Source: Thermococci archaeon (GTDB lineage Archaea; Hadarchaeota; B88-G9). From it: a stretch of 55,630 bases of DNA. Positions 23,679 through 40,419 of the stretch are shown here, piece after piece. A model generated the notes under the pieces. That model saw nothing but the letters and a program-made list of their open reading frames with translations. It searched no databases and was not told where the DNA came from. Location of the stretch: contig QMUK01000001.1 of the NCBI GenBank assembly GCA_003660555.1, forward strand, positions 1-55,630. The letters run 5' to 3'. How positions within the stretch are numbered: the first letter of the stretch is position 1; every line of letters starts with the position of its first letter. Both the position numbers and the translations under genes were made by a program.

Positions 23679-24268
23679 TGCCCTCCCCAATCCCCACTCC
23701 AAGAAATTTAAGTGAGGCAATTAGGATACAGATCGAATGGAGTAGGTTATTTGAATTCGACTATCCTAGTATAGACAGGATACTATGCGTCGACTCATCT
23801 TACTCAATTGATCAAAAATCAATGTACACAGTCTTGCTTGGATTCAATCTAGAGGGGGAGAGAATTCTCAAGGACGAATTACACTCCGAAGTGAACTTTC
23901 CCTATATACCCACGCTCTTCTGTTTCAGAGAGGGACCACCCCAGACGAGAATACTAGAGAAGTACGCTTCCGAGGGAGACTTGATTGTCGTAAATGGGCA
24001 TGGAATAGCTCATCCTAGGAGATTCGGTCTAGCGACTTACGTAGGTGTAAGTTTAGACTCTCCAACACTGGGTCTAGCTAAAAAGAAAATAGTTGGGGAG
24101 TATAATGGAGATTACCTAGTTCACATGGGAGAGGTAGTTGGGAGAAGGGTAGGAGGATTTTTAGCTAGTGTGGGTCACAGATTCAATCTAGACGACATAG
24201 AAATAATAAGACTGTGTACCCGTTTAATGAGGAGGACACACAATGAGTGTCGCAGGGGATGGAAATAA
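23678..24268 (+). CDS. nfi: Endonuclease V
   Basis: Motifs CVDSSY, YIPTLFCFREGPP, VNGHGIAHPRRFGLATYVGV, PTLGLAKKK. The ATG overlaps the upstream stop codon (TGATG). Confidence 0.85.
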   Translation: MPSPIPTPRNLSEAIRIQIEWSRLFEFDYPSIDRILCVDSSYSIDQKSMYTVLLGFNLEGERILKDELHSEVNFPYIPTLFCFREGPPQTRILEKYASEGDLIVVNGHGIAHPRRFGLATYVGVSLDSPTLGLAKKKIVGEYNGDYLVHMGEVVGRRVGGFLASVGHRFNLDDIEIIRLCTRLMRRTHNECRRGWK

Positions 24269-25589
24269 AGGGAAAAAGAAAGCTCTAGTGTTGATAGACG
24301 GCGAACATTATCCACCAGTAATCAAAGAGGCAATAGACAATTTATCCAAAAAATATAAGATTTTAGGCGCGTACTTCATTGGAGGAACTGAGAAAATAGG
24401 AGAAAGGTCATTGGAATCAGAACTAGGACTGAATGTATATGATAAAAACCTAAGAGATGTGATTAGAAGATTAAGAGCGGAAGTAGTAATAGATCTGAGT
24501 GATGAACCAGTAGTGGACTATGAAAGGAGATTCCTTCTAGCTTCCGAAGTGTTGATTGAGGGGAGTTCATACATAGGCCCGGATTTCACTTTCTCACCAC
24601 CAGAGCTATTCGAAGTGTTAAACAAACCCTCCATATCCATAATAGGAACCGGGAAAAGAGTAGGTAAAACTGCTGTCTCTGGCTACGTATCTAGGCTATT
24701 AAAGGAAAATGGATTAGATCCAATAGTCATTACAATGGGGAGAGGAGGGCCAAAGGAACCAGAAATTATCAATAGCGGAACTAAGATAACTCCAGAGAGT
24801 TTACTTGAGATTTCCAAGAAAGGAGGTCACGCAGCCTCAGATCATTGGGAGGACGCACTTACCAGTGGAGTGACCACTATAGGATGCAGGAGATGCGGAG
24901 GAGGTTTAGCTGGAAAGACTTTCTTTAACAACGTCATTAGTGGAGCAGAAATATCTAATTCGATGAGTGGAGGAATAGTAATAGTAGAGGGAAGTGGAGC
25001 AGCAATACCACCAATTAAGACAGATAAGGTAATTCTAGTTGGGAGTGGAAGAAAAAAAGGAATATCTAAGTTCTTCGGAAGATACAGGATCCTATTGTCC
25101 GATTTAGTAATTTTAACTTCCTGTGAAGATCAGGGGAAGTCTAGAGAAATAAAGGAGGAAGTACTCTCTGTCAAGAATATACCAGTAGTAGAGACAGTAT
25201 TTAGGCCAGAACCGCTCGGAAATGTAGAGGGAAAGAGGTGTTTCCTCATAGCAACCTCTAAACAGATGGTCAAAAACATACCCTACTTAGAGGAGAGGTA
25301 CGGCTGCGAGATAGTTGGATTTTCTCCGAACCTATCCAATAGGACTAAACTCAAGAAGGAGATCGAAGAAACACTTAGTGGTGTAGAAGTCGTGCTAACA
25401 GAGCTCAAGGCATCTGCAGTAGACTTGGTTACTAGAGAAGCTCTTGCTAAGGGCAAAGAGGTTATATATTACGACAACGTCCCTATTGGGATACCGTCGA
25501 ATAAAGTTTTAACTGAGGAGATACTCAGACTAGTAGGAGAAGCGAGGAGAGGTTGGGATTGGAGAGAGGGAGAAGAAAAGGAGTCCTAA
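24243..25589 (+). CDS. cpgS: Cyclic 2,3-diphosphoglycerate synthetase
   Basis: About 450 aa. N-terminal LIDGEHYPPVI signature. P-loop-like IIGTGKRVGKT. Immediately followed by, and overlapping, the 2-phosphoglycerate kinase gene. Confidence 0.75.
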   Translation: MSVAGDGNKGKKKALVLIDGEHYPPVIKEAIDNLSKKYKILGAYFIGGTEKIGERSLESELGLNVYDKNLRDVIRRLRAEVVIDLSDEPVVDYERRFLLASEVLIEGSSYIGPDFTFSPPELFEVLNKPSISIIGTGKRVGKTAVSGYVSRLLKENGLDPIVITMGRGGPKEPEIINSGTKITPESLLEISKKGGHAASDHWEDALTSGVTTIGCRRCGGGLAGKTFFNNVISGAEISNSMSGGIVIVEGSGAAIPPIKTDKVILVGSGRKKGISKFFGRYRILLSDLVILTSCEDQGKSREIKEEVLSVKNIPVVETVFRPEPLGNVEGKRCFLIATSKQMVKNIPYLEERYGCEIVGFSPNLSNRTKLKKEIEETLSGVEVVLTELKASAVDLVTREALAKGKEVIYYDNVPIGIPSNKVLTEEILRLVGEARRGWDWREGEEKES

Positions 25590-26470
25590 TAGAGGAGGAG
25601 AACGGGAGAACATCACCCTACTCTAAAGGTATTTTGGCCCAGAGATTAATGGTCTCAGGAATAAGCAGAGATAAAGCCTATGAGATAGCTAGGAAAATAG
25701 AGGAAAAACTAACTTCCAAGGGAGTAGAGAGAATAAAGCAGGAAAAACTCCAGGAAATAATATATGAAACAATAAAGGAGGAAGTAGGGGAAGAAGAGGC
25801 TGACAGATACAGATTATGGATAAAAATAAAGAGGAAAAAGGAGCCGATAATAATATTGTTGGGAGGAGCAACGGGTTGTGGCAAATCCACAATAGCTTCT
25901 GAACTAGCTTACAGGCTTGGAATAAGGCACGTAGTCGGAACAGACGCCATAAGGGAGGTCATGAGGAGAATATTGTCTAAAGAACTAATGCCTTTTCTTC
26001 ATGAATCTTCCTACACGGCTTGGAGAGCCATACACGTGCCGATACCTCCCACATACGATGAAATGATAGTTGGCTTTGAAGAGCATGCTAAACACGTAGT
26101 AGTTGGAATAGAAGCAGTCCTGAGAAGAGCACTGGTTGAGGGGATGAACATGATAATAGAAGGAGTACACATAGTTCCAGGGTTCATAAAAAAAGAGTTC
26201 ACTGACTTGCCTAATGTAATTCCTATCATTCTTTACGTTGAAGATTCAGATGAGCATAAAATAAGATTTTATGCTAGAGCTCAGGAGGCCCCCTTTAGGA
26301 AACCAGTGGAGGAGTATATAAAGGACTTCGAGGCAATAAGGAGAATACAGAACTACCTAGTAAGACAAGCCGAAATATATGGGGTACCTGCTATAAAGAA
26401 CGAGTCGATGGAGGAAACAGTGGAGAGAATAATAGGAATAATAACTGAGAGGCTTAAGAGACTAGTCTAG
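25553..26470 (+). CDS. 2-phosphoglycerate kinase
   Basis: N-terminal ATP-cone-like PYSKGILAQRLMVSGISRDKAYEIARKIE. P-loop LLGGATGCGKSTIASELA. Length about 300 aa. TTG start. Confidence 0.8.
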   Translation: MGLERGRRKGVLIEEENGRTSPYSKGILAQRLMVSGISRDKAYEIARKIEEKLTSKGVERIKQEKLQEIIYETIKEEVGEEEADRYRLWIKIKRKKEPIIILLGGATGCGKSTIASELAYRLGIRHVVGTDAIREVMRRILSKELMPFLHESSYTAWRAIHVPIPPTYDEMIVGFEEHAKHVVVGIEAVLRRALVEGMNMIIEGVHIVPGFIKKEFTDLPNVIPIILYVEDSDEHKIRFYARAQEAPFRKPVEEYIKDFEAIRRIQNYLVRQAEIYGVPAIKNESMEETVERIIGIITERLKRLV

Positions 26471-27086: not shown

Positions 27087-27596
27087 CTAATTTTCTCCCC
27101 CGTCTATTACTATCTTGGTCCTACAGGGGAGTTTAGCAGCAGCCCTTCTCAGAGCTTCCTTTGCCACTTCCAAATGCTCCTTCTTAACCCTAACGAGGAG
27201 AACGTCCTTCCCCTTTTTGACCCTAGCCGCAGTGCCTATCGGTTTTCCGAAGGCCCTTCGCATGCCATCCGAGTATCTATCAGCATGGTGTCCTATTGCC
27301 ACAGGATTCCATCTCAGTACGTGATGGGGATATACCTTGATCTTCAGATGGTAGTTTCCTCTTCCGAGACTTCTCTGCAGGTACTTGTTAGCGGCAACTC
27401 TCATGGCCTCTATGGCGTTATGTCTTATCTGCACGTCCTCCTTGGTTATAAGAGCCACACTTAGGTCGAAGTCTCCTTTGGGATTACCCATGTCGAACTG
27501 CGCTACCTTTATCCCCGGGACTCCTCTTATGAATTCTCTCCTAGTATAGGCTGGCCCTTTGATCTCTCGGAATATTCTAGCCGGTTTCAGGCCCAT
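27087..27596 (-). CDS. rpl10e: Large-subunit ribosomal protein L10e (uL16)
   Basis: [38 protein letters not shown]... is a typical archaeal L10e N-terminus. 169 aa. Confidence 0.95.
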
Positions 27597-27681
27597 GGGA
27601 CCACCTCACGACCTGAGCCCTATCAGCTGGAAACGTTTTAATTACTTTTCCCTATATGGGGGCTTGGCCGGAGGCTCAGAA

Positions 27682-27975
27682 ATGGCCAATAGCAAGTTAG
27701 ATAACCAAAACTCTGAGGTAGTAATAAGAGGAAAGTTCAACGTCACGATCAAACCAGTGAGAGGGAGGATATACGTCATAAGAGATAGATGTAAGGGATG
27801 TGGCTTTTGCGTGACTTTCTGTCCGAAAGGAGTCTTAGAGCTATCCGAGGATTTTAACTCCAAAGGTTACCACTATCCGATCCTGAAAGAGGAACCGCCA
27901 GATAAGATTTGCATAAACTGTGGATTTTGTTCACTAATATGCCCAGAATTTGCCATATTCAATGAGGAGGATTAG
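27682..27975 (+). CDS. korD: 2-oxoacid:ferredoxin oxidoreductase, delta (2x[4Fe-4S] ferredoxin) subunit
   Basis: CKGCGFCVTFCP and CINCGFCSLICP. ATG at 27682 preceded by GGAGG. The N-terminal extension in the ORF track overlaps the divergent rpl10e gene. Confidence 0.85.
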   Translation: MANSKLDNQNSEVVIRGKFNVTIKPVRGRIYVIRDRCKGCGFCVTFCPKGVLELSEDFNSKGYHYPILKEEPPDKICINCGFCSLICPEFAIFNEED

Positions 27976-27976
27976 C

Positions 27977-29104
27977 ATGAACCCAGGAATGCACTTCCTC
28001 TCCGGAAACATAGCTTGTGCAGAAGGAGCAATAGCAGTAGGATGTAGATTCTTCGCTGGTTACCCAATAACTCCCTCTACTGAAATAGCTGAGCACATGG
28101 CCTACAGGTTGCCCCAAGTAAAGGGGATATACGTGCAGATGGAAGACGAGCTAGCATCAATGGCGGCAATAATAGGAGCTTCTTGGGGCGGAATGAAGGC
28201 CATGACTGCCACTTCTGGTCCTGGATTTAGTTTAATGCAGGAAAACATAGGTCTAGCGGTGATGACTGAAACCCCTTGCGTTGTAGTCAACGTCCAGAGA
28301 GGCGCCCCCTCCACGGGACTGCCTACCTTGGTGGGACAAGGGGACGTGATGCAAGCTAGATGGGGATCCCACGGCTCATATGAGATAATAGCACTTTGCC
28401 CGAATTCACCACAAGAGTGTTTTGATCTCACGGTTAGGGCTTTCAATCTCTCTGAGAAGTATAGAGTCCCTGTAATTCTCTTGATGGACGAGTGTGTAGG
28501 ACACATGTACGAGAGAGTATTCATACCAGAGGAAGTCGAGATAGTGAATAGGAAGAAGCCTCTGGAGGACAAACGCGATTACCTACCCTTTCTACCGAAG
28601 GAAGACCTAGTGCCCGAGATGGCCCTTGCCGGAGAGGGCTTTAGAATACACGTCACTGGCTTAACTCATGATGAGAGAGGATATCCTGCTACTAATCCAG
28701 AGGCACACGAGAAGTTAGTCAGAAGACTCTGTGAGAAAATTCGAGTCAATAAGAAGAAGATAGTGGACTACGAGGGAGTACTCCTAGATGACTCAGACGT
28801 GTTAATAGTGGCCTACGGAGCACCATCTAGGACGTCCATGAGAGCTCTGAGAGAGGCAAGAAAGAGGGGTATTAGGGTAGGCCTCTTTAGATTAAAGACC
28901 ATTTGGCCATTTCCAGAGGAAGAACTTAGAAAAGCATCCTCTAATGTGGAGCACATAGTAGTTCCTGAGATAAATTACGGCCAATTAGTTCTAGAAGTGG
29001 AGAGAGTTTGTAAAGGGGGAGAAGTTCACTTAATTCCAAAAATGGGTGGTAGGGTTCATTCACCAAGGGAAATCTTAGAATATCTAATTAATCTCAACAG
29101 GTAA
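27977..29104 (+). CDS. korA: 2-oxoacid:ferredoxin oxidoreductase, alpha subunit
   Basis: FLSGNIACAEGAIAVGCRFFAGYPITPSTEI. ATG at 27977 after GAGGAGG. The delta-alpha-beta-gamma gene order matches archaeal 2-oxoglutarate-type enzymes. Substrate cannot be determined from sequence alone. Confidence 0.9.
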   Translation: MNPGMHFLSGNIACAEGAIAVGCRFFAGYPITPSTEIAEHMAYRLPQVKGIYVQMEDELASMAAIIGASWGGMKAMTATSGPGFSLMQENIGLAVMTETPCVVVNVQRGAPSTGLPTLVGQGDVMQARWGSHGSYEIIALCPNSPQECFDLTVRAFNLSEKYRVPVILLMDECVGHMYERVFIPEEVEIVNRKKPLEDKRDYLPFLPKEDLVPEMALAGEGFRIHVTGLTHDERGYPATNPEAHEKLVRRLCEKIRVNKKKIVDYEGVLLDDSDVLIVAYGAPSRTSMRALREARKRGIRVGLFRLKTIWPFPEEELRKASSNVEHIVVPEINYGQLVLEVERVCKGGEVHLIPKMGGRVHSPREILEYLINLNR

Positions 29105-29125
29105 CGATTAATTGAGGGGATAAGC

Positions 29126-29965
29126 ATGATGCAAGCTCAAGAACATCCTTTAGAGAAATACCTCAGAGTTGACAGACTACCGCACGTTTGGTGTCCTGGA
29201 TGTGGTATAGGGACAGTCCTTGGAAGCTATGTGAGGGCAATTGATAGACTAGGTTTAGATCTGGACAAGATGGCAATGGTCTCTGGAATAGGGTGTGCAG
29301 GGAGAGCAGCAGGATACGTGAACATGGATTCCTTCCATACGACTCATGGTAGGGCTATACCATTTGCAGTCGGACTCAAGCTCGCTAAGCCAGAGCTAAT
29401 AGTAACTGTCTTCAGCGGAGACGGAGATCTATTTGCTATAGGAGGCAATCACTTCATACATGCAGCTAGAAGAAACTGCGACCTCAAAGTAATATGTGTG
29501 AATAACTTCAACTACGGGATGACTGGTGGCCAATTGGGCCCGACTACTCCTCTTGGAGCCAAGACTACTACTTCTCCATATGGAAACTTGGAGTTACCAC
29601 TCAACCTACCATATTTCGCTGCTTCCTGTGGCTCCTCTTATGTAGCTAGGTGGACTTCTCTGCACGCTAGGAACATGATCGAGTGCTTCGAGGAGATATT
29701 AGAGAAAAAGGGCTTTTGCTTCGTTGAAATACTATCGCCTTGTCCAACGGTATATGGGAGAAGAAACGAGATGCCAGAGGGATTAGACATGATGAAACTC
29801 TTCAAAGAGAGATGTGAAATAAGGAACTTTGAAGACACTTCCAGAGTTGGCCTTAATCAGGAAAAAATAATAATAGGAAAGTTCGTAGACGAAGAGGAAA
29901 AAGAGACGTTTGAAGACAGAGTATATTCTCTCATGGAGGAAGTGAAATGGGGAGGTTCGAGATAG
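29126..29965 (+). CDS. korB: 2-oxoacid:ferredoxin oxidoreductase, beta (TPP-binding) subunit
   Basis: WCPGCGIG, SGIGCAGR, and GDGDLFAIGGNHFIHAARRN (TPP/Mg motif). Confidence 0.9.
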   Translation: MMQAQEHPLEKYLRVDRLPHVWCPGCGIGTVLGSYVRAIDRLGLDLDKMAMVSGIGCAGRAAGYVNMDSFHTTHGRAIPFAVGLKLAKPELIVTVFSGDGDLFAIGGNHFIHAARRNCDLKVICVNNFNYGMTGGQLGPTTPLGAKTTTSPYGNLELPLNLPYFAASCGSSYVARWTSLHARNMIECFEEILEKKGFCFVEILSPCPTVYGRRNEMPEGLDMMKLFKERCEIRNFEDTSRVGLNQEKIIIGKFVDEEEKETFEDRVYSLMEEVKWGGSR

Positions 29966-30495
29966 TGTTCTCGGGATTCGGAGGACAAGGAATAGTTCTA
30001 GCTGGATTGATAATCGGAAAGGCTGCAGCAATATTCGATGGAAAGGAAGCAGTTTTTACACAAAGCTATGGACCAGAGGCAAGAGGAGGTGCCTCTTCCT
30101 CATCAGTAGTTGTTGATGAAGAGAGAGTGGACTACCCCTACGCGGAGAACCCAGACTTGCTAGTAGTCATGTCCCAAGAAGCCTATAACAAGAGGATAGG
30201 AATGCTCAAGCCTGGAGGAACCCTAGTCTACGACTCAGATCTAGTGAAAATAGACGAGAGAGCTAGAAAAGCCTCCGAGATATACGGGATCCCAGCTACT
30301 AGAATAGCGGAAGAGAAGCTAGGCAAGAGAATAGTGGCGAACATAGTTATCTTAGGATTCTTAGCCAGAATCTGTAAAGTAATAAGCAAGGAATCTCTTA
30401 AAAAAGCAGTTTTAGACACAGTACCAAGAAAATTCAGAGAAGTAAATGAAAAAGCATTCGAATTGGGTTATTCTTACCTTGATTGGAGGGAATGA
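29947..30495 (+). CDS. korG: 2-oxoacid:ferredoxin oxidoreductase, gamma subunit
   Basis: FSGFGGQGIVLAGLIIGKAA...SYGPEARGG. 19-nt overlap with korB. Confidence 0.9.
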   Translation: MGRFEIVFSGFGGQGIVLAGLIIGKAAAIFDGKEAVFTQSYGPEARGGASSSSVVVDEERVDYPYAENPDLLVVMSQEAYNKRIGMLKPGGTLVYDSDLVKIDERARKASEIYGIPATRIAEEKLGKRIVANIVILGFLARICKVISKESLKKAVLDTVPRKFREVNEKAFELGYSYLDWRE

Positions 30496-30496
30496 C

Positions 30497-32467
30497 TTGA
30501 GAATAGGAGTCTTCGTTTGCCATTGCGGAAGAAACATATCCTCCACAGTAGACGTATCTAGAGTTGTCCGAGAGGTTTCAGAGAGGAGCAGGAAGGTAGT
30601 CTTCTCAACGGATTATAAATACTTGTGCTCTGACCCAGGACAAAAGCTAATAGAAGAAAAAATTAAAGAAGAAAACCTAGATGCTGTAGTAATAGCTGCT
30701 TGTTCCCCCTCTATGCACGAAGAGACTTTCAGGAGAGTGCTAAAGAGAGCTGGAATAAACGAGTACTTGTTGGAAATAGCTAATATAAGGGAGCAATGCA
30801 GCTGGGTACACGAAGACGGTACTGAAAAAGCAATAGCTCTAACATTGGCTGCAGTGGAGAAGGTATCTAGAAATGAGAAGTTAAAACCAATTAAAATAGG
30901 AGTTAAAAGAAAGTGTCTAGTTATAGGCGGAGGAATAGCTGGAATAACTGCTTCCCTGGACTTAGCTAATTCAGGATTTGAAGTAATCTTAGTTGAGAAA
31001 TCCCCAACAATAGGTGGAAAAATGGCCCAATTGTCCGAGACTTTTCCAACATTAGATTGTTCCCAATGCATTTTAACACCGTTAATGGTATCTCTATCAA
31101 GAAATGATAGGATAAAGCTTTATACAATGAGTGAAGTAGTAGAAATTGATGGATACGTGGGGAACTTTAGGGTCAAGATAAAGAAGAAGCCTAGATATGT
31201 AATAGAGGAAAAATGCACAGTATGCGGCGAATGCGAGAAAGTATGCCCAGTAATAGTCCCAAATGAGTTCGATAGAGGCCTTTCCTATAGAAAAGCAATA
31301 TACATACCATTTCCACAGGCTGTACCCTCTTCCTATGTTATAGATCCAAACAGTTGTCTCGGATTGAATCCCGTGGTCTGTGGGAAATGTAAAGAGGTTT
31401 GCGAAGCAGACGCAATAGACTATCACATGAGAGAGGAGACGATAGAAGAGGAAGTAGGTGCGATAATCGTTGCTACAGGTTATGAGCTCTTTCCTAAGGA
31501 TAGAATAGGAGAATACGGATATGGAACATATGAAGACGTAATAGATGCGCTGGAATTCGAGAGAATACTTTCCTCTACTGGACCAACAGGAGGTACTGTG
31601 AAGAGGCCCAGCGATGGGAGAACACCAAAGAGAGTCGTTTTCATACAGTGTGCAGGCTCCAGGGACGAGAATTATCTGGAGTATTGCTCTAAGATCTGCT
31701 GCATGTACACAGCTAAGCAGGCGATGTTATACAAACACCTAGTTCCAGAGGGAGAGGCATATGTGTTCTACATAGACGTGAGGACAGCGGGAAAAGGATA
31801 CGAAGAGTTCTTTAGGAGGGTTCAGGAAGAGGAGGGAGTCATCTACATAAGGGGGAAGGTATCCAGAGTCTACCGAGAAGGAGAGAATCTAATTGTAGAA
31901 GGAGTAGACACGCTCACAGGTAAGAAGCTCACCATAGAGGCGGATCTGGTAGTTCTCTCCACAGGAGTAGTTCCTCCGGAAGGAACAGAGAACTTAGTCT
32001 CTGTGTTGAAGATACAACAAGACCAGAGTGGTTTCCTCAAAGAAGCTCACCCAAAGCTGAAGCCGACTGAAACCCTTACCAAAGGTATTTTCATTTGCGG
32101 AGCAATTCAAGGACCAAAAGACATAACTGAGACAGTTTCTCAGGCAAAAGGAGCTGCTAGTGCGGTAATGGAGTTGCTATCTATGGGAGAAGTGGAGAGG
32201 GATCCCATAGTAGCTAGGGTGAATGAAGAGTACTGCGTGGCTTGCAAGACTTGCGAATCCCTCTGCCCATTCGGGGCCGTGAAAGTCAGAGATAAAGCGG
32301 AGGTAAATGAGGCTTTATGCGAAGGATGTGGAATATGTGCAGCTTCTTGTCCAACAGGAGCAATAGAAGTGGTTAACAATAAATTTGATCAGTTCGAAGA
32401 GGTCTTAGAGGTGTTAATCAATGGTAGAGAAAAGCTGGAGACCGAGAATAGTGGCCTTCCTTTGTAG
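30497..32467 (+). CDS. hdrA: Heterodisulfide reductase subunit A (FAD/Fe-S, electron-bifurcating type)
   Basis: N-terminal IGVFVCHCGRNIS. FAD fold LVIGGGIAGITASLDLA. Several CxxCxxCxxxCP clusters. A TTG start at 30497, 1 nt after the korG stop and after GGAGGG, is preferred over the ORF-track ATG at 30446. Confidence 0.9.
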   Translation: MRIGVFVCHCGRNISSTVDVSRVVREVSERSRKVVFSTDYKYLCSDPGQKLIEEKIKEENLDAVVIAACSPSMHEETFRRVLKRAGINEYLLEIANIREQCSWVHEDGTEKAIALTLAAVEKVSRNEKLKPIKIGVKRKCLVIGGGIAGITASLDLANSGFEVILVEKSPTIGGKMAQLSETFPTLDCSQCILTPLMVSLSRNDRIKLYTMSEVVEIDGYVGNFRVKIKKKPRYVIEEKCTVCGECEKVCPVIVPNEFDRGLSYRKAIYIPFPQAVPSSYVIDPNSCLGLNPVVCGKCKEVCEADAIDYHMREETIEEEVGAIIVATGYELFPKDRIGEYGYGTYEDVIDALEFERILSSTGPTGGTVKRPSDGRTPKRVVFIQCAGSRDENYLEYCSKICCMYTAKQAMLYKHLVPEGEAYVFYIDVRTAGKGYEEFFRRVQEEEGVIYIRGKVSRVYREGENLIVEGVDTLTGKKLTIEADLVVLSTGVVPPEGTENLVSVLKIQQDQSGFLKEAHPKLKPTETLTKGIFICGAIQGPKDITETVSQAKGAASAVMELLSMGEVERDPIVARVNEEYCVACKTCESLCPFGAVKVRDKAEVNEALCEGCGICAASCPTGAIEVVNNKFDQFEEVLEVLINGREKLETENSGLPL

Positions 32468-32837
32468 GTGGTGTGGGTACGCTGGAGCTGATCTGGCTGG
32501 TGTTTCGAGGATGAAGTACCCAGAGATATATCCAATTAGAGTGAATTGTAGCGGGAGCGTACATCCAGAGCTCATTTTAGATGCTTTCAGGAAGGGAGCC
32601 GATGGAGTCCTAATATGTGGTTGCCATACGCCCAATGACTGCCATTACATCTCCGGAAACTACAAGGCATTGAAGAGGGTGGCCCTAGTAAAGAAGTTGC
32701 TTTCCCAGCTGGGAATAAACCAAGAAAGGGTTAGACTCGAGTGGATATCTGCTGCAGAGGGCAGGAAGTTTTCAAGAGTAGTTAAAGAGTTTTATGAAAA
32801 GATAAGAGAACTAGGACCATTGGAGGTGCGTGTTTGA
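32421..32837 (+). CDS. mvhD: Methyl-viologen-reducing hydrogenase delta subunit (MvhD)
   Basis: IVAFLCRWCGYAGADLAG...CSG...GADGVLICGCH motif set. Overlaps the hdrA 3' end. Confidence 0.85.
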   Translation: MVEKSWRPRIVAFLCRWCGYAGADLAGVSRMKYPEIYPIRVNCSGSVHPELILDAFRKGADGVLICGCHTPNDCHYISGNYKALKRVALVKKLLSQLGINQERVRLEWISAAEGRKFSRVVKEFYEKIRELGPLEVRV

Positions 32838-33766
32838 AGAAGATAGCCATTTTAGGAGGAGCCAGTTGCTCCGGATGCGACGTAGCTTTATTTGACCTTC
32901 CAGGGGATGAATTAGAGAGATTCTTCTCGGAAGTAGAAGTGGTCTTCTGGTCCACGACGATGGATTCTAGGATAGAGGACTTCGAAGCCCAGGGGAAAAT
33001 AGATCTAGTGATGTTTCATGGAGGAATTAGGACGGAGGAGCACAGAAAACTCCTCATCCAAGCTAGAGAGAAGGCTGAAATTTTAGTGGCACTCGGATCC
33101 TGCGCTTCATTCGGAGGAATACCAGGAATAGCGAACCTCTTCGAATTGGACGCGATATTAAAAGACATATATGGCGATGAATTCACTAAATTGAGCGGAG
33201 AGAGAATACCTAAACCCGAGGAAAGACTGAAACCAATTTCTAGCTACGTTGAGGTTGATTACTATCTTCCAGGATGTCCACCACCAGTTGAGACAATATC
33301 CGAGTTTTTGGACCACTTCATACTAGGATCTCTACCTCCTAGGGGAATCTTCGGTAAGGAATCTACGGTATGTGACGAATGTGATAGGATCAAGCCTGAG
33401 GATATATCAATAGAAGAGGTGAAGAGGATAGGATCTAAGGACTGGAGCGAGATAGACCCAAAGGTGTGCTTCCTCGCTCAAGGAGTGGTTTGTCTAGGAG
33501 CTGTAACACGAGGAGGATGTAAGGCAAGATGTATTAACGCTAATTTCCCGTGTAGAGGTTGCATGGGACCTGCTCCAAATATAAGAGACCAAGGAGCTAG
33601 AATATTATCCGAAATAGCCTCATTACTAATGAAAGAATCTGAGAAGAATTTGTCCGATGAGGAAATTTACGAAAGAGTTCAAAAGGAGATAGTAGACCCT
33701 GTAGGCCTATTCTACAGATACACTCTTCCCCACTACTGGGGTGGGAGCAATGAAGAAGATGATTAA
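32834..33766 (+). CDS. mvhG: F420-non-reducing [NiFe] hydrogenase small subunit (MvhG)
   Basis: ILGGASCSGCDVALFDL, LGSCASFGGIPG, C-terminal Cys clusters (CDECD, CLGAVTRGGC, CRGC). Confidence 0.85.
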   Translation: MKKIAILGGASCSGCDVALFDLPGDELERFFSEVEVVFWSTTMDSRIEDFEAQGKIDLVMFHGGIRTEEHRKLLIQAREKAEILVALGSCASFGGIPGIANLFELDAILKDIYGDEFTKLSGERIPKPEERLKPISSYVEVDYYLPGCPPPVETISEFLDHFILGSLPPRGIFGKESTVCDECDRIKPEDISIEEVKRIGSKDWSEIDPKVCFLAQGVVCLGAVTRGGCKARCINANFPCRGCMGPAPNIRDQGARILSEIASLLMKESEKNLSDEEIYERVQKEIVDPVGLFYRYTLPHYWGGSNEEDD

Positions 33767-35162
33767 GATAGATCCCGTGACTAGATTGGAAGGGGAAGCT
33801 AAGATTTCGATATTCATGGATGAAAGCGGAAAGACTGTGGAAGACGTATTGTTCCAAGTGACTGAGTTCAGAGCATTCGAGAAGTTCTGCATCGGAAGAG
33901 ACGTCATGGAAATGCCTAGGATAACCAGCGCGATATGTGGTTTCTGTTCCTGGGCTCATCACTTGGCATCTGTTAAGGCTGTGGACAATCTTCTGGGAAA
34001 AAACGTTCCGGAACCAGCCGAAAAGCTCAGAGAACTTGGATATTGTGCTCACATACTTCATAGTCATCTGGCTCATATGTATCTCTTGGCATTACCTGAT
34101 TTCCTCCAACTGAAGGAGAAAAACGTCTTTCACTTAATGAAGGAGAATCCCTCCCTAGTGAGAGATATACTAGAGAAAAGGAGATACTCTTACTTCATAC
34201 AGGAGATGGTTGGTGGAAAAGCGATACATCCAGTTTTCGCTATACCGGGAGGAGTAAGTAAATCCATTAGTGAAAAGGAAAGGGTTAAAATAGAGGAGAT
34301 GTCCAGAGAGTTAGTTGACTTCTCCAAGAAGTCAATAGAAGTGTTTATGGAAGCAACCCTCAAATTCAGGGAGAATGACCCATACTACCACGAGACGCAT
34401 TACATGTCATTGGTGAAGAACGGAAAGCTGAACTTCTACTCTGGGAAAATAAGGGTAGTGAATACTGAAGGTAAGAAAATACATGAGTTCTCACCCGAGG
34501 AATACTCGGATTACATAGGAGAGGTAGTCAAGGATTGGAGCTACACCAAGTTTCCCTACCTAAGGGAAATGGGATGGAAAGGGCTAACATGGGGAAAGGA
34601 GAGTGGAATATTTAGGGTAGGTCCCCTAGCTAGAATGAACGTTTGCGAGAGAATGGAAACTGAAGGTGCACAGTGGGAATACGAGAGATTCATTGAAGAA
34701 ATGGGAAAGCCATGCCATAACACCATGGCATTTCATTGGGCCAGAGCCATAGAGATACTCTATGCCAGTGAAAAAATGCTAGAACTATCTAGGGAGGAAG
34801 ACATAGTAGATTCTAAGGAGATATTCGATCCAGACGGAGAGTTGAGAGGTAGAGGAGTAGGAGCACTAGAGGCTCCGAGGGGTACGCTATATCACGACTA
34901 TGAAGTAGATGAGGAAGGGAGAGTGACTTTCGTGAACCTAATCGTTCCCACGACAGAGAATAATCCAAGCATATGTATAAGTGTCAAAAAAGGGGCAGAA
35001 GAACTCTTGTCTAATGGAAAAAGAATAGACAGGAACATATTAAACAAGATAGAGGTGGCTTTCAGAGCATATGATCCTTGCTTGGCGTGTTCGACTCATA
35101 ACCTGGATCAGTCCATTAGAGTTGAGATATTCCATGGTAGCGAACTCGTCAAGACACTATGA
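33750..35162 (+). CDS. mvhA: F420-non-reducing [NiFe] hydrogenase large subunit (MvhA)
   Basis: L1 motif RLEGEAKI. RITSAICGFCSWAHH (RxCGxCxxxH). C-terminal DPCLACSTH followed by a roughly 20-aa cleavable extension. Confidence 0.9.
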   Translation: MKKMIKIDPVTRLEGEAKISIFMDESGKTVEDVLFQVTEFRAFEKFCIGRDVMEMPRITSAICGFCSWAHHLASVKAVDNLLGKNVPEPAEKLRELGYCAHILHSHLAHMYLLALPDFLQLKEKNVFHLMKENPSLVRDILEKRRYSYFIQEMVGGKAIHPVFAIPGGVSKSISEKERVKIEEMSRELVDFSKKSIEVFMEATLKFRENDPYYHETHYMSLVKNGKLNFYSGKIRVVNTEGKKIHEFSPEEYSDYIGEVVKDWSYTKFPYLREMGWKGLTWGKESGIFRVGPLARMNVCERMETEGAQWEYERFIEEMGKPCHNTMAFHWARAIEILYASEKMLELSREEDIVDSKEIFDPDGELRGRGVGALEAPRGTLYHDYEVDEEGRVTFVNLIVPTTENNPSICISVKKGAEELLSNGKRIDRNILNKIEVAFRAYDPCLACSTHNLDQSIRVEIFHGSELVKTL

Positions 35163-35171
35163 GGTGATTAG

Positions 35172-35663
35172 GTGTTACTCATAGTAGGGTTGGGCAATGA
35201 ATTAGCTGGAGAAGACGCGTGCGGGATCCTAATAGCAAAGGAAATAATCAAGGAGGTAAAAAAAGAGGATTGGTTAAGAGATAAGCTTGAGAGCGGGGAG
35301 TTAACGATAAAATACGGAATAAACAACTACTTCTCTCTAATAGAGGAGTCCATAGGATTCGATGAGGTAATAGTATTGGATTCCATAAGCTCAGAGGATT
35401 TGGATGAAGGGGAAGTAGTCGAGATATCTTTGGGAGACAACATACATCAAGTCATACCACCCCATCCGGTCTCCCTGCTCCAAGGAATAGAGTTGATGAA
35501 GTCTCTTGGAATCTTCCCAGAGGAATTCAGGATAATATGTGTTAACGTCAGGAGGAAAAGCTTCGGGGGAAGAATTTCCGAGGAGGTAATCCGAGGTATG
35601 GAGATAGTCAAGGAGATAGTGATGGAGGAGATAGCTTATGAATTCGGTGAAGGAAATAGCTAA
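35172..35663 (+). CDS. [NiFe]-hydrogenase maturation endopeptidase
   Basis: N-terminal LIVGLGNELAGEDACG. Position directly after the large-subunit gene. Confidence 0.8.
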   Translation: MLLIVGLGNELAGEDACGILIAKEIIKEVKKEDWLRDKLESGELTIKYGINNYFSLIEESIGFDEVIVLDSISSEDLDEGEVVEISLGDNIHQVIPPHPVSLLQGIELMKSLGIFPEEFRIICVNVRRKSFGGRISEEVIRGMEIVKEIVMEEIAYEFGEGNS

Positions 35664-36021
35664 GGAAGTGAAGTTGATAAGCGGACAAAATGTCTTTGCG
35701 TGCTATCAATGTGGTAGATGCTCCTCTGCTTGTCCGATGACAGAGGAAATGGATCTCCTCCCAAATCAGATAATCAGACTAGTTCAAATGTCAGACGATG
35801 CTGTGCTTTCCTCAGTGACCCCATGGATATGCGCTTCCTGCTTAGATTGTACTATAAGGTGTCCTAGAGGAATAGACGTCGCTAAAGTAATGGAAGCCAT
35901 TAGGCAACTCTCTATAAGGAGAGGCATCGAGAAGAGAGAGGAATTAGTAAGAAATTTCAAAGAAATGGATGAATTGCCACAGATATTGCTAGTGAGTGCG
36001 TTCAGAAAGTACACGGGGTGA
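35638..36021 (+). CDS. hdrC: Heterodisulfide reductase subunit C-like (2x[4Fe-4S])
   Basis: CYQCGRCSSACP and CASCLDCTIRCPRGIDV. Confidence 0.8.
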   Translation: MNSVKEIAKEVKLISGQNVFACYQCGRCSSACPMTEEMDLLPNQIIRLVQMSDDAVLSSVTPWICASCLDCTIRCPRGIDVAKVMEAIRQLSIRRGIEKREELVRNFKEMDELPQILLVSAFRKYTG

Positions 36022-36800
36022 TACTTTTGGGTAAATACAGATACATGTATTACCCTGGGTGCACTCTCAAAGGATGGGCTAAAGACCTAGAAACATCAAC
36101 TCTTAAAGTCTGTGAGATACTCGGCATTGATCTAATTGAGCTGGATAGATGGTATTGTTGTGGAGGGGTATTCGAGTTATCAGACAATCTAATGAGACAC
36201 TTAGGTGCAGTTAGAAGTCTAATAAAAGCAGAAGAGAAGTCAAAGGAGATAGGAACAGGGGATTTGGTTACCATCTGCTCCATGTGTTATAACGTCTTGG
36301 GTAGAATCAGTTTTCAGCTGAAGAAAGAAGACATCGAGAAGATAAATTTCTTCATGGATGACGAGAAAGACTATTCTGGTAAAATAAGAGTTAAGCACTT
36401 CTTGGAAGTGCTAAAAGAGTACGGATTCAATAAAATAAGGAATTACGTAGACGAACAAATGGGAATTAAAGTCGCACCATACTACGGTTGTACACTCCTC
36501 AGACCGGAGGAGATAGGTATAGATGACAGTCAGAAACCGAGGATCATGGAGGAGTTATTAGAAGCAATTGGTATGGATCCAGTAAGCTTCCCAATGCAGA
36601 CAGTTTGCTGTGGATCATATAACTCAGCTAGAGGGATTAAGGCCGTAGAAACTTTGAGAAAGAAGATATTAGAGTCAGCTAAAAGAGAAGGAGCAGAATT
36701 AATAGTTACCTCTTGCCCCCTATGTAAATACAATCTGAAAGAAGCTATGTATTTCACCGAGTTGATGGAAATGGCCCTCGGAGGTGCCCGTCATGGGTAA
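36018..36800 (+). CDS. hdrB: Heterodisulfide reductase subunit B-like (two CCG domains)
   Basis: YYPGCTL...WYCCGG and YYGCTLLRP...VCCGS...SCPLC. Exact start uncertain (36018, 36027 or 36045). Confidence 0.85.
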   Translation: MILLGKYRYMYYPGCTLKGWAKDLETSTLKVCEILGIDLIELDRWYCCGGVFELSDNLMRHLGAVRSLIKAEEKSKEIGTGDLVTICSMCYNVLGRISFQLKKEDIEKINFFMDDEKDYSGKIRVKHFLEVLKEYGFNKIRNYVDEQMGIKVAPYYGCTLLRPEEIGIDDSQKPRIMEELLEAIGMDPVSFPMQTVCCGSYNSARGIKAVETLRKKILESAKREGAELIVTSCPLCKYNLKEAMYFTELMEMALGGARHG

Positions 36801-37458
36801 GACCGTTAGAATATACGTCATGGGGAGGGAGTACGAAGTCCCAGAGGGTCTGACGATAATGAAAGCCTTGGAATACGTTGGTTATAGATATATTAGAGGA
36901 GCAGGATGCAGAGCGGGATTTTGTGGAGCATGCACAACAGTTTACAGGAAAAACGGAGACTATAAACTATATTCCGGGTTAGCATGTCAAACCACAGTGG
37001 AAGACGGAATGTATCTAGTACAAATACCGTTTGTTCCAGCAGAGAAACCTAAATATGAAGTTTCTGAAATAAAGGACGTCGAGGACATACTTAGAGTATA
37101 TCCGGAGATAGCTAGATGCCTCTCTTGTAATACCTGTACCAAGTCTTGTCCTCAAGGGTTAGAGACCATGGACGTAATACAGTCTATTTTGAGAGGGGAC
37201 ATAAAGAGAGCAGCAGAATTGAGTTTCGACTGCATACAATGTGGAATCTGTTCTATGAGATGTCCTGCAGAGATAACTCACTATCACGTAGCTCAATTGG
37301 TCAGGAGAGTCTACGGAAAGCATTACTTGAAGAAATCCAAGGAGCTCGAGAGGAGAATAAAAGAAATAGAGGAGGGAAAATACCAAGAGGAGATAGAGAG
37401 GTTGATGAAGCTACCTAGAGAGGAACTAGAGAGACTCTACAAGGAGATTAGGAGGTAG
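36793..37458 (+). CDS. SdhB/FrdB-like iron-sulfur protein (plant-type 2Fe-2S plus two 4Fe-4S motifs)
   Basis: CRAGFCGAC...LAC (2Fe-2S), CLSCNTCTKSCP, CIQCGICSMRCP. ATG at 36793 preceded by GGAGGTG. Confidence 0.7.
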   Translation: MGKTVRIYVMGREYEVPEGLTIMKALEYVGYRYIRGAGCRAGFCGACTTVYRKNGDYKLYSGLACQTTVEDGMYLVQIPFVPAEKPKYEVSEIKDVEDILRVYPEIARCLSCNTCTKSCPQGLETMDVIQSILRGDIKRAAELSFDCIQCGICSMRCPAEITHYHVAQLVRRVYGKHYLKKSKELERRIKEIEEGKYQEEIERLMKLPREELERLYKEIRR

Positions 37459-37464
37459 TTGTAG

Positions 37465-39114
37465 ATGTCGTATCCGGAAGAGATGAGGAAATCTATAGAA
37501 AAAGTTGAAGAGACTAGGGATGAAAGATTAGGGCTTGAAATAAATAGAATGTCCCTAGAGGAGAGGGAAGAAATACTGAAGAAATTTCACCCTGATTATA
37601 GACCCGAAGCCAAGAGAGAAATAGGAATAGGACCAAATAAAGGAGACTTAGCGCCTAATGAGGTTGTCGACCTATTGGAGTCTTATCCCATAGTCGATCC
37701 AGAGGAAGTCGACCTGAGTCAAGTGGATTACGATGTTTCCCTCCTCATAATAGGAGGAGGAGGCGCTGGAACAGTCGCTGCATTGTGGGCCCATTACTCA
37801 GGATTGCCTGTAGAGGAGATACTGATCTCCACTAAACTAAGACATGGGGACTCCAATTCCATAATGGCACAAGGAGGGATACAAGCAGCAGACAAACCAG
37901 ATGACTCCCCAGTGCTACATTACTTAGATGTAATGGGCGGAGGACATTTCGCGAATAAACCAGAATTGGTGAGAGAATTAGTTCTGAACGCACCCTCAAT
38001 ACTCAAATGGCACGAGGATTTGGGAGTGATGTATGACAAGGACGAGGACGGAAACATGCTTACTCTCCCCGGTGGAGGTACTTGTAGGAATAGGTTACAC
38101 TCAGCCAAGGATTACACAGGTATGGAAATAATGAGGGTGATAAGAGATGAGGCTAGGAACTTGGGAATAGAGGTTTTGGAATTCTCTCCAGCAGTGGAAC
38201 TCCTGACTGACAATGGAAGAGTCACTGGAGCCTTGCTCTGGAATATGGAGACGAATCAGTATTACGTTATAAGGGCTAAGGCAGTGATCTTGGCAACCGG
38301 AGGCTTCGGTAGGCTTCACATACAGGGTTACCCAACTACCAATCATTATGGAGCCACAGCTGATGGATTGGTCATGGCGTATAGAGTAGGAGCTAGACTA
38401 AGGGACATGGACTCAGTGCAGTATCACCCAACCGGAGCAGCTTATCCTGAGCAGATAGTAGGTTTACTCGTCACTGAAAAGGTCAGGGGATTGGGAGCTC
38501 AGCCAGTTAACAGAGAGGGAGAAGCTTTTGTCCATCCATTGGAGCCTAGAGATGTAGAAGCTGCCGCTATTATAAGGGAGTGCTATGAGAGAAGACTAGG
38601 AATTGAAACACCCACTGGGATGGTAGGAGTCTGGTTGGACACACCGATGATTGAGGAAATTCACGGAAAGGGAACTATAGAGAGTAAGCTATCGGCCATG
38701 TACAGAATGTACTCTAGGTTCGGTATAGACATGACCCAGGATCCAATTCTGGTCTTTCCGACTCTTCATTACCAGAATGGTGGTGTGGAGATAGACGAGA
38801 AGGCCAGAGTTCTCGGAGAAAGTGGGGTTATAGACGGCTTATTCGCTGCTGGTGAAGTCACTGGTGGAGTACACGGTAAAAACAGACTAATGGGAAATTC
38901 ATTGTTAGATTATAACGTCTTTGGAAAAATAGCAGGCGAATCAGCAGCTAAGTACTGTAAGTCCAATGGAAAGGGTAGATTGACACTAGACCACGTTATT
39001 AGATACATGGAGGCCCTGAAGAAAATGGGAGTGCCAGAAAATAGAAAGTCTCCGCTCATACTTCCGGATTACAGGGGAAAGAAGGTACTAATGAGGACAT
39101 TAGATCTGTTCTAG
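37465..39114 (+). CDS. Succinate dehydrogenase/fumarate reductase-type flavoprotein (FrdA/TfrA/aspartate-oxidase superfamily) with N-terminal extension
   Basis: FAD fold LLIIGGGGAGTVAAL. YHPTG. LFAAGEVTGGVHGKNRLMGNSLLD. About 90 aa of extra N-terminal sequence. Confidence 0.8.
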   Translation: MSYPEEMRKSIEKVEETRDERLGLEINRMSLEEREEILKKFHPDYRPEAKREIGIGPNKGDLAPNEVVDLLESYPIVDPEEVDLSQVDYDVSLLIIGGGGAGTVAALWAHYSGLPVEEILISTKLRHGDSNSIMAQGGIQAADKPDDSPVLHYLDVMGGGHFANKPELVRELVLNAPSILKWHEDLGVMYDKDEDGNMLTLPGGGTCRNRLHSAKDYTGMEIMRVIRDEARNLGIEVLEFSPAVELLTDNGRVTGALLWNMETNQYYVIRAKAVILATGGFGRLHIQGYPTTNHYGATADGLVMAYRVGARLRDMDSVQYHPTGAAYPEQIVGLLVTEKVRGLGAQPVNREGEAFVHPLEPRDVEAAAIIRECYERRLGIETPTGMVGVWLDTPMIEEIHGKGTIESKLSAMYRMYSRFGIDMTQDPILVFPTLHYQNGGVEIDEKARVLGESGVIDGLFAAGEVTGGVHGKNRLMGNSLLDYNVFGKIAGESAAKYCKSNGKGRLTLDHVIRYMEALKKMGVPENRKSPLILPDYRGKKVLMRTLDLF

Positions 39115-40419
39115 CTTCGGAGGAGGACCAACTCCAATCCAGAGTCCCCTATTGAGGAATGAGACTTCCTCCTCGCTCAGTTTACCGTCTTTCTCTCTTC
39201 CTTCTCTGATAAGAGGTTTAGATATGTGCCTCCTAGCTCTAGGAGGTACCTCATACTTGCCCTCTGAAATCTTCCTAGGTATCTCTACTCGTATCTTTTC
39301 TCCCTCGAACTTCACATTACACTTCTTGCAGACATATCCCTTCCTGAAACCTAAGGACTTTCCCCTTCTACCACATTTCGGACAAGGAGGATTCAACTCA
39401 ATGATTTCTCTTTTTAGCTTTAGTATTTCTATTTTCTCAAGATTTAGTGCCTTTCCATCGAGCCTAATGCATCCATAAGCTCTTACAATGTCACCTTCTC
39501 TCAGAGACAGTATCACATCTCTGAAACCACCAGTCGGCTCGTATGCTGCACACGGAATTCCAGATATCCTCGTTATTACGTGTCCACCTGCTATTTTTCT
39601 CCCCCTCTCTTCCACCTCTCCTCGGATCTCAATGCAATCTCCAGGTTTGTACTTCTCTCTGATGGATATGTGGTCATCCGTTCCTTGGTTAGTTCTGTAT
39701 ATGGTCCATCTCTCTATCTCCTCGTAGACCTTGATCATAGAGGCAGCTTCTAGCACCGTCCAAGGGTATTCCCCCCTTATTCCAAATAACACTGGGTCTT
39801 TCCCCCTTGGACATATTAGGATCCTTCCGGTCTCTGGATCTAGGTTGTCGAATGTATCTGGATAGGTCTTATAGTCCATTTCAATTACACTGCTTTGGTC
39901 TAAGAGTCTTTCTCTTCTATTTCTCATCTTCTCGGTCCGATAACTAAGAAATTCGTATGTGTAGTCTTTGAGTCTATACAGTGCAGAGGCTGCAGCCCCT
40001 ATAACACCGAGGCCGCCAGCAGTTTCAACTCCCTCCATCTCCTCTATCTGATTCAGTGCATCGCTTGGTTCCAACACTCTAGAGACTGCATTTCTTACGA
40101 TTTCATGGTTTATCAATCTGTCAGTTGAGCAGAAGAAGACACCCCACTCTCTACTTTCACTCAGGTCTTCTACTGTGTCTAACACTAGCCTTTTCACAGC
40201 CGAGTAATCCTTCACCAACAGATGAAATGAGATTGCTCCATTCCCTCTAGTCTTGTATGGAACACTTGGATTGAGCCTGATGAGTCTCGGATAGTCTAGG
40301 AACTTAACACTCCCCATCCTGATAAGCTTGTTTGCCAAGACGGACCCGAGATACGTAGTACACATTCCCTTCCTAGAGTCGGTGTCGTCTATACCTACCC
40401 TGATTTCCTCCCAACTCAA
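39100..40419 (-). CDS. tiaS: tRNA(Ile2) 2-agmatinylcytidine synthetase TiaS
   Basis: N-terminal VGIDDTDSRKGMCTTYLG signature. OB-fold region. C-terminal CPKCGRR...CKKC zinc ribbon. 439 aa. Confidence 0.85.
   Translation of the reverse strand: MSWEEIRVGIDDTDSRKGMCTTYLGSVLANKLIRMGSVKFLDYPRLIRLNPSVPYKTRGNGAISFHLLVKDYSAVKRLVLDTVEDLSESREWGVFFCSTDRLINHEIVRNAVSRVLEPSDALNQIEEMEGVETAGGLGVIGAAASALYRLKDYTYEFLSYRTEKMRNRRERLLDQSSVIEMDYKTYPDTFDNLDPETGRILICPRGKDPVLFGIRGEYPWTVLEAASMIKVYEEIERWTIYRTNQGTDDHISIREKYKPGDCIEIRGEVEERGRKIAGGHVITRISGIPCAAYEPTGGFRDVILSLREGDIVRAYGCIRLDGKALNLEKIEILKLKREIIELNPPCPKCGRRGKSLGFRKGYVCKKCNVKFEGEKIRVEIPRKISEGKYEVPPRARRHISKPLIREGREKDGKLSEEEVSFLNRGLWIGVGPPPKLEQI

Follow-up and report, generated by a model that had tools for sequence, protein, structure and literature searches.

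Which acceptor takes the electrons of a heterodisulfide reductase in an archaeon that has no known heterodisulfide? The question is raised by an array of 13 genes at positions 27682-39114 of a 55,630-nucleotide stretch of DNA, called the window below, which corresponds to positions 1 to 55,630 of the forward strand of contig QMUK01000001.1 (assembly GCA_003660555.1) of a Thermococci archaeon assigned to the Hadarchaeota (B88-G9). The array brings together a 2-oxoacid:ferredoxin oxidoreductase (KOR), the flavoprotein HdrA with the hydrogenase subunits MvhDGA, the heterodisulfide reductase subunits HdrCB, and a fumarate-reductase-like pair of proteins resembling SdhB and SdhA. The gene content tips the balance, by a little, towards flavin-based electron bifurcation driven by H2, with fumarate as the high-potential acceptor where methanogens have the mixed disulfide of coenzyme M (CoM) and coenzyme B (CoB), CoM-S-S-CoB. 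With this array, H2 would probably serve as the electron source for the two reductions in the reductive half of the citric-acid cycle.

All 13 genes are on the plus strand, and their order, as read in a first-pass annotation of the window, was borne out by the open reading frame listing and by the Pfam and NCBIfam results. The features of the array are as follows, with cut-offs referring to the curated thresholds of the models.

27637..27681, plus strand: putative promoter and leader; TATA-like box (TTTAAT) 45 nt before the korD ATG and GGAGG some 7 nt ahead of the start (sequence inspection)
27682..27975, plus strand: korD, delta subunit with two CxxCxxCxxxCP motifs; Pfam Fer4 families, best NCBIfam model OGOR_delta, below cut-off
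27950..29104, plus strand: korA, alpha subunit of 2-oxoacid:ferredoxin oxidoreductase; POR_N and PFOR_II, NF006412 at 593 bits (cut-off 411)
29126..29965, plus strand: korB, thiamine pyrophosphate (TPP)-binding beta subunit; TPP_enzyme_C, best NCBIfam model the 2-oxoglutarate ferredoxin oxidoreductase beta subunit
29947..30495, plus strand: korG, gamma subunit; Pfam POR, NF006323 at 230 bits (cut-off 235)
30497..32467, plus strand: hdrA, electron-bifurcating flavoprotein with a TTG start; 702 bits to 5ODC_A, NCBIfam HdrA2/HdrA
32421..32837, plus strand: mvhD, [2Fe-2S] connector subunit; Pfam FlpD (9.7e-53), NCBIfam VhuD
32834..33766, plus strand: mvhG, [NiFe] hydrogenase small subunit; Oxidored_q6, NCBIfam VhuG
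33741..35162, plus strand: mvhA, [NiFe] large subunit of the Mvh (group 3c) type; best match in the Protein Data Bank (PDB) 5ODC_F, 410 bits over the full length
35172..35663, plus strand: hydrogenase maturation endopeptidase; TIGR00072 at 53.7 bits (cut-off 47.45), Pfam HycI
35638..36021, plus strand: hdrC, a short protein (127 aa) carrying two CxxCxxCxxxCP motifs; matches to NCBIfam HdrC models at scores under the cut-off
36018..36800, plus strand: hdrB, 260 aa with two CCG domains; Pfam CCG twice, alignments to 9SFI_C, 8RVV_B and 5ODC_B
36784..37458, plus strand: iron-sulfur subunit resembling SdhB and the N-terminal part of TfrB; Fer2_4, Fer2 and Fer4 families, match to TfrB residues 19-186
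37465..39114, plus strand: SdhA/FrdA-like flavoprotein of 549 aa; FAD_binding_2 at residues 93-480

The genes are closely packed. Successive junctions measure -26, +21, -19, +1, -47, -4, -26, +9, -26, -4, -17 and +6 nt, with negative values standing for overlaps. The extremes are an overlap of 47 nt between hdrA and mvhD and a gap of 21 nt between korA and korB, in agreement with the earlier reading that the genes overlap or are at most 22 nt apart. The start of hdrA had been put at a TTG 1 nt after the korG stop; position 30497 is indeed the best placement, because the NCBIfam HdrA models and the alignments to 5ODC_A begin there and GGAGGG is found 8 nt upstream. GGAGG-like motifs precede most genes of the array, and only two T5 runs occur on its plus strand over 11.4 kb. 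Both edges are formed by genes on the opposite strand, rpl10e (minus, 27087-27596) and tiaS (minus, 39100-40419), so that at most one 13-gene unit fits between them. The array is predicted to be transcribed as a single 13-gene message.

The last two genes of the array encode the fumarate-reductase-like pair. The SdhB-like protein has the motifs for one [2Fe-2S] cluster and two four-cysteine [4Fe-4S] clusters. The SdhA-like flavoprotein is below the curated cut-offs of the NCBIfam models for TfrA, Sdh/Frd, NadB and flavocytochrome c. Its best NCBIfam match is the TfrA model NF004900, on which it reaches 321 of the 718 bits required and covers only profile positions 6-413 of 546, and it has no Pfam match to Succ_DH_flav_C (PF02910). 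The HPTG, TExxR, RD, HYxxGG and NRLxGNS motifs are all in place when the protein is aligned to mycobacterial Sdh1 (7D6V) and to the flavocytochrome c fumarate reductase of Shewanella (1D4C), and they line up with the fumarate-site residues of the Shewanella enzyme. In an alignment of 46 SdhA-like sequences from Archaea and Bacteria, H321, T337, E338, R341, R362, H435 and R474 are invariant. Asn131, also invariant in the 46 sequences, replaces the histidine that binds flavin adenine dinucleotide (FAD) covalently at the 8-alpha position in complex II, as it does in soluble fumarate reductases. The AlphaFold (AF2) model of the protein has a pLDDT of 89 and a pTM of 0.90, and the fold most similar to it is that of E. 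coli FrdA (1KF6_A, TM 0.67). No Sdh_cyt gene that could supply a membrane anchor is found within the array.

Residues 1-90 of the SdhA-like protein (37465-37740) form an N-terminal extension that is specific to the family. TfrA, FrdA and NadB lack it, archaeal and bacterial members of the family have largely conserved it, and its pLDDT in the model is about 85-96. The extension may serve to dock SdhB or HdrB. According to NCBIfam, the SdhB-like protein matches the N-terminal half of TfrB (19-186) and HdrB matches the C-terminal half (261-468). The order hdrC-hdrB-sdhB-sdhA therefore reads as a split and rearranged Tfr-like fumarate reductase with HdrC added.

The Hdr-Mvh part of the array is complete. 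Residues 2-632 of HdrA align to residues 5-641 of 5ODC_A, the HdrA of Methanothermococcus, over the full length, and inspection by eye finds the cysteine motifs kept. The cysteine in the GAC-QGPKDI stretch of 5ODC HdrA was considered as a marker and set aside as uninformative; it is an isoleucine in the window protein, and other HdrA proteins of such clusters also lack it. Both metal ligand motifs of MvhA, CGFC and DPCLAC, are intact in the alignment, so this hydrogenase is not a ligand-lost form. Such a form does exist: the MvhA homolog of a Desulfurococcales metagenome-assembled genome (MAG; L014:6820-8080) has CGTQS in place of CGxC and no DPCxxC, and appears as an inactive-hydrogenase variant, whereas the [NiFe] ligands are kept in all other checkable MvhA homologs of the set described below. 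HdrB is about 35 residues shorter than its methanogen counterpart. It scores 132 bits on the methanogen HdrB model and 115 on the SdhE model of the methylmenaquinol:fumarate reductase (MFR) type. None of the subunits scored against the NCBIfam equivalog models passes the cut-off (HdrA2, 832 bits of 1100; VhuA, 361 of 800; VhuG, 183 of 450; HdrB, 132 of 345; HdrC, 68 of 160).

The KOR module has the four-subunit layout of 2-oxoglutarate:ferredoxin oxidoreductases (KGOR or OGOR), with a TPP-binding domain and a delta subunit carrying two [4Fe-4S] clusters, as judged from Pfam. The best sequence matches of KorA in the PDB are 1YD7 (a 2-keto acid oxidoreductase chain of Pyrococcus), 8YS5 (2-oxoglutarate synthase) and 6N2N (the OGOR of Magnetococcus), compared to only 66 bits for a pyruvate enzyme (POR).

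The rest of the genome was surveyed by family searches of the assembly, which has 1.30 Mb in 150 contigs and is 91% complete. A genome inventory for methanogenesis, DsrC and CoM/CoB genes had been proposed together with the observation that the window lacks mcr and CoM genes. That absence extends to the assembly, where McrA and ComA have 0 matches each and CoB biosynthesis was not searched for; DsrC was not found either, nor were CdhC and citrate synthase. According to a genome-wide search for CCG domains, hdrB is the only HdrB-type gene of the assembly. The only other CCG protein is a fusion of 898 aa, consisting of a GlcD-like FAD-linked oxidase, a 4Fe-4S dicluster domain and a CCG part (contig C96:1197-3893, L082), which is probably a lactate- or glycolate-type dehydrogenase. 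The genes sucD-sucC are divergent from fumA-fumB on contig C8 (13379-18170; L081:5380-10171), a class III aminotransferase gene comes after fumA-fumB, and a malic enzyme gene is found on contig C11. An indolepyruvate oxidoreductase alpha-like gene follows downstream on C8. The C8 genes form a small citric-acid-branch and amino-acid island that stands apart from the array.

The first-pass annotation had left the acceptor of the HdrB branch as unknown. This statement can be refined, because the single HdrB of the genome is encoded directly before the SdhB/SdhA-like pair and because McrA, ComA and DsrC are not found. On these grounds fumarate itself appears to be the most likely acceptor. In the mechanism we favor, H2 would be oxidized by MvhA, and MvhG and MvhD would pass the electrons to the FAD of HdrA. 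The downhill branch would then run from HdrC to the two non-cubane clusters of HdrB, which would act as a wire and not as a disulfide site, and further through the SdhB-like protein to the non-covalent FAD of the SdhA-like protein, where fumarate would be reduced to succinate. The uphill branch would lead to ferredoxin, or straight to KorD, and KOR would spend the reduced ferredoxin on the carboxylation of succinyl-CoA. The predicted stoichiometry is 1:1, so that two H2 would pay for exactly one fumarate reduction and one carboxylation.

Several observations favor this forward direction. The textbook potentials are -414 mV for H2, +33 mV for fumarate/succinate and about -500 mV for ferredoxin, which would make the forward reaction strongly exergonic, about twice as much as the heterodisulfide version. 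The covalent-FAD histidine is invariantly lost in the family, HdrB is single and the known disulfide systems are absent. Furthermore, no citrate synthase was found, but malic enzyme, fumarase and succinyl-CoA synthetase are present.

The association of the modules is not restricted to the window. In a scan of one genome per species, at least 597 stretches with SdhA-like relatives were confirmed by tblastn, and the best 80 of these were analyzed further; neighborhoods were counted by tblastn of the 13 window proteins on these 80 loci. The SdhA-like relatives are 57-73% identical to the window protein and come from very many uncultured lineages, with hosts that include Thermoplasmatota, Asgard archaea, Bathyarchaeia, Bipolaricaulota, Chloroflexota, WOR-3 and Bacillota. 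An sdhB gene is next to the sdhA-like gene in 77 of the 80 loci, and hdrC or hdrB is near it in 58, usually before the pair. The other partners are hdrA (43/80), mvhD (40/80), at least two kor subunits (28/80) and mvhA (18/80). A kor operon is expected by chance within 10 kb in only about 1% of genomes, so the link between the modules is far beyond chance. In the tree of SdhA-like proteins Bacteria and Archaea are intermixed, and the window protein is positioned beside that of a Thermoplasmata MAG with modest support.

Every module is present in seven of the loci, in three gene orders. Two Thermoplasmata MAGs (L001 and L013) have the order kor-[hdrA...sdhA], with the 12 core genes arranged as in the window. 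The kor genes follow the block in L015, L016 and L023 ([hdrA...sdhA]-kor), and they are divided in L011 and L030 (korG-[hdrA...sdhA]-korDAB). The proposal that the three modules form one functional unit thus gains weight, since the operon itself is tight and the modules come together in three orders and in many lineages that are unrelated to each other. The three orders are cyclic rotations of the ring korD-A-B-G-hdrA-mvhD-G-A-hdrC-B-sdhB-A. A tandem duplication with different losses afterwards could explain the rotations, as could an Hdr/Mvh/Frd block inserted at different kor boundaries.

The MvhAGD-HdrABC complex of hydrogenotrophic methanogens is an H2:CoB-CoM heterodisulfide, ferredoxin reductase. 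All six of its subunits (5ODC, 8RVU, 9SW2), the [NiFe] ligands and the maturation protease also occur in the window. The window HdrB (260 aa) and HdrC (127 aa) are shorter, however, and the operon adds the SdhB/SdhA-like pair and KOR. Unlike the methanogens, the window genome is without McrA and ComA and hence without a known heterodisulfide. The TfrAB enzyme of Methanothermobacter and Methanococcus resembles the window pair in being a soluble, quinone-independent fumarate reductase. Compared to TfrAB, the single TfrB polypeptide is split into two genes in the window, these are in reverse order, and HdrC is added; the flavoprotein is extended by 90 aa at its N-terminus, and its match to TfrA does not reach into the C-terminal part. 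TfrAB uses CoM-SH and CoB-SH as reductants, whereas these thiols are not expected in the window genome, which has neither ComA nor McrA. The type E succinate:quinone oxidoreductases and MFR (SdhABE) also combine an SdhAB core with an HdrB-like partner that has two CCG domains, as in the window. These enzymes exchange electrons with quinones, whereas the CCG subunit of the window is tied to HdrC and HdrA, and the operon has no membrane or quinone element.

The closest parallel in logic is found in clusters in which bifurcation by HdrA is interleaved with a soluble fumarate reductase and the input is NADH (reduced nicotinamide adenine dinucleotide) through FlxABC. In tubeworm symbionts and Thioflavicoccus mobilis, flxABCD-hdrABC is interspersed with tfrAB and korABCD in a conserved manner, and electron shuttling to OGOR and thiol:fumarate reductase was proposed (PMC6315080); co-expression data for the symbiont cluster came later (PMC11636981). 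The symbionts, like the window, have a four-subunit KOR. In Pseudoclostridium thermosuccinogenes, Flx-Hdr together with a 'novel fumarate reductase' was described as a 'succinate operon' (PMC7282089). The Flx layout also occurs with the SdhBA-like family of the window, for example in the cultured Sporomusa rhizae (L075), where the order is hdrB-hdrC-hdrA-mvhD/flxD-flxC-flxB-flxA-sdhB-sdhA and Flx takes the place of MvhGA. The converse is seen in the window, where the array has no NAD_binding_1 or FAD_binding_6 gene and MvhG, MvhA and the protease occupy the place of FlxABC. Electrons thus enter from NADH in the Flx clusters, which belong to Bacteria, and are predicted to enter from H2, through MvhGA with its dedicated protease, in the archaeal one. 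A paper on Culexarchaeia noted that SdhA adjoins HdrBC, and other genome papers assign 'an unidentified heterodisulfide' to the HdrABC-MvhADG of non-methanogens.

The first-pass suggestion that the system is uncharacterized has to be divided accordingly. The NADH/Flx idea had been put forward in 2019 for the tubeworm symbionts and P. thermosuccinogenes, with expression data only (PMC6315080, PMC7282089, PMC11636981). No description of an H2/Mvh-KOR form, cultured organisms included, was found in the literature searched. The array would be the H2-driven archaeal version of the already proposed Flx-Hdr-fumarate reductase/Kor system, and the H2 form is new.

A number of observations weigh against H2-driven fumarate reduction, and several of them concern its direction. 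The gene content leaves the direction unfixed, and the same set in reverse is a coherent glutamate-oxidizing route. In a peptide or glutamate fermenter, ferredoxin reduced by KOR and electrons taken from succinate via SdhBA would meet at HdrA, to be released as H2 through Mvh; this would permit the path from succinate through fumarate and malate to pyruvate without quinones, and the 1:1 stoichiometry works backwards too. The genome encodes the malic enzyme, fumarase and sucCD needed, the class III aminotransferase beside fumAB, and further 2-oxoacid oxidoreductases, including an indolepyruvate oxidoreductase (IOR), as in peptide fermenters. Group 4 hydrogenase (Mbh) or Nuo-like modules, another trait of peptide fermenters, are found on contigs C6 and C64. 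The nearest relative of KorA by sequence is the Pyrococcus chain 1YD7, and 2-oxoacid:ferredoxin oxidoreductases are reversible. Among the KOR models, those for 2-oxoglutarate rank best after the generic 2-oxoacid ones (NF006412, NF006323), yet they are below the curated cut-offs. On the side of the reductive branch, neither a malate dehydrogenase of the Ldh type (the Ldh_2 type was not searched for) nor an archaeal phosphoenolpyruvate carboxylase (pyruvate carboxylase was not searched for) was found in the genome. The proteome is hyperthermophile-like in composition, with an IVYWREL fraction of 0.46, and formation of H2 from succinate was argued to be feasible above 65 °C (PMC9723716). Succinate-oxidizing enzymes rely on the covalent-FAD histidine, however, and this residue is invariantly Asn in the SdhA-like family. 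At standard textbook potentials the mean donor would be at about -235 mV against -414 mV for H2, a cost of about +70 kJ per two H2, so that very low H2 would be needed. A canonical sdhA-sdhC-sdhD-sdhB operon with the covalent-FAD histidine, Succ_DH_flav_C and two Sdh_cyt genes is present on contig C100 (L087:1439-4652). As a second fumarate/succinate enzyme it detracts from the role proposed for the array, but it would also be available for succinate oxidation, which speaks against the reverse route, and the group 4 or Nuo-like modules could already dispose of reduced ferredoxin. Taken together, these points make the reverse route unlikely.

A different objection concerns the role of HdrB. The protein has all ten cysteines of its two CCG motifs and thus retains the complete disulfide-type cluster site of methanogens, which leaves room for a thiol substrate. 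Mvh-Hdr might then reduce a small-thiol or protein-bound disulfide, and the split Tfr-like enzyme would re-oxidize the thiols with fumarate, without a direct wire and with KOR merely co-regulated and supplied by free ferredoxin. That hdrB and the sdhB-like gene amount to a split TfrB fits this scheme, as Tfr is a thiol:fumarate reductase, and the literature usually assumes an unidentified heterodisulfide for the Hdr of non-methanogens. Furthermore, hdrA-mvhDGA followed by the same hdrCB-sdhBA occurs in Methanofastidiosum (L007), a genus of methanogens, where CoM and CoB would be at hand. The scheme is disfavored because it needs two HdrB-type sites, one for reduction and one for oxidation, whereas the operon has one and the assembly adds only the FAD-oxidase fusion. 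ComA, McrA and DsrC are not found in the 91%-complete genome, and CCG subunits are plain electron entry or exit modules in SdhABE enzymes of the MFR type, on whose SdhE model HdrB scores close to its score on the methanogen model (115 and 132 bits). A thiol intermediate is accordingly held to be doubtful. The fumarate label itself would be wrong if the flavoprotein acted on another unsaturated or amino dicarboxylate, in an aspartate-oxidase-like or other enoate reaction. The failure to reach any curated cut-off, the unique conserved extension and the lack of a recognizable Succ_DH_flav_C domain would be in keeping with this, but all fumarate-binding and -protonating residues are invariant, and an SdhB-like partner is almost always there, whereas enzymes of the NadB and urocanate types have none. 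The genomic partners are KOR in the array and fumarase and succinyl-CoA synthetase elsewhere in the genome, and bacterial loci of the same tree, such as that of Sporomusa (57-59% identical), share Flx-Hdr and the two-gene layout of the 'succinate operon' (PMC7282089), a likeness that is one of operon architecture alone. A different substrate is thus very improbable. What also counts against H2-driven fumarate reduction is that no enzymology of the SdhBA-like family, in either an NADH/Flx or an H2/Mvh complex, was found in the literature searched.

Should H2-driven fumarate reduction hold, the operon and its relatives offer a testable acceptor for the orphan Hdr-Mvh of non-methanogens, namely fumarate reached via the wire of HdrB and the SdhB-like protein. 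This would be a new physiological acceptor for Hdr-type bifurcation. Very low H2 could suffice to reduce ferredoxin, because fumarate pulls electrons much more strongly than the heterodisulfide does, and quinone-free anaerobes could run both redox steps of the reductive branch of the citric-acid cycle with balanced stoichiometry. A bolder version, which we regard as improbable, would have all 13 products in one soluble super-complex in which HdrA hands its low-potential electron directly to KorD without free ferredoxin. Such a machine would mechanically couple the oxidation of H2 to the reduction of fumarate and to the fixation of CO2 onto succinyl-CoA, and fumarate would more broadly be the long-sought acceptor of the 'orphan' HdrABC-MvhADG of non-methanogenic archaea, for example Asgard archaea, Bathyarchaeia and Thermoplasmatota. 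Organisms in culture that have the NADH version, among them Sporomusa rhizae DSM 16652 and P. thermosuccinogenes, open the core idea to experiment.

The cluster was probably acquired horizontally. None of the 40 nearest genomes compared, which share only the phylum with the host, has the SdhA-like gene (0/40), and TiaS, encoded at the edge of the array, shares no more than 47% identity with any named protein, apart from a near-identical twin. The host, an uncultured non-methanogen, belongs to a deep lineage. According to the Zeldovich relation, the IVYWREL fraction of its proteome corresponds to growth near 97 °C, which suggests a hyperthermophile. A second Hdr/Mvh set has apparently decayed in this genome: on contig C14 (1661-3421; L085), remains of three genes, which resemble hdrC, mvhA (its C-terminal half only) and the protease gene, are broken up by TGA, TAG and TAA stops. 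A selenoprotein or an alternative genetic code was considered for this remnant and rejected in favor of pseudogenes, as the stops are mixed. The contig that carries the canonical complex II operon, C100, is short (4.7 kb), and its membership of the bin is not certain.

The window also has genes for [NiFe] maturation, which precede the array by 6.5 to 9.3 kb.

18397-18756, plus strand: hypA; Pfam HypA
18753-18980, plus strand: hypC; Pfam HupF_HypC
18966-21182, minus strand: hypF; Pfam HypF domains

A DUF1152 gene (21183-22112, minus) abuts hypF on the same strand, and hypA and hypC, on its other side, point towards hypF. Between these genes and the array, a pair encoding cyclic 2,3-diphosphoglycerate (cDPG) synthetase and 2-phosphoglycerate kinase at 24243-26470 fits the predicted hyperthermophily.

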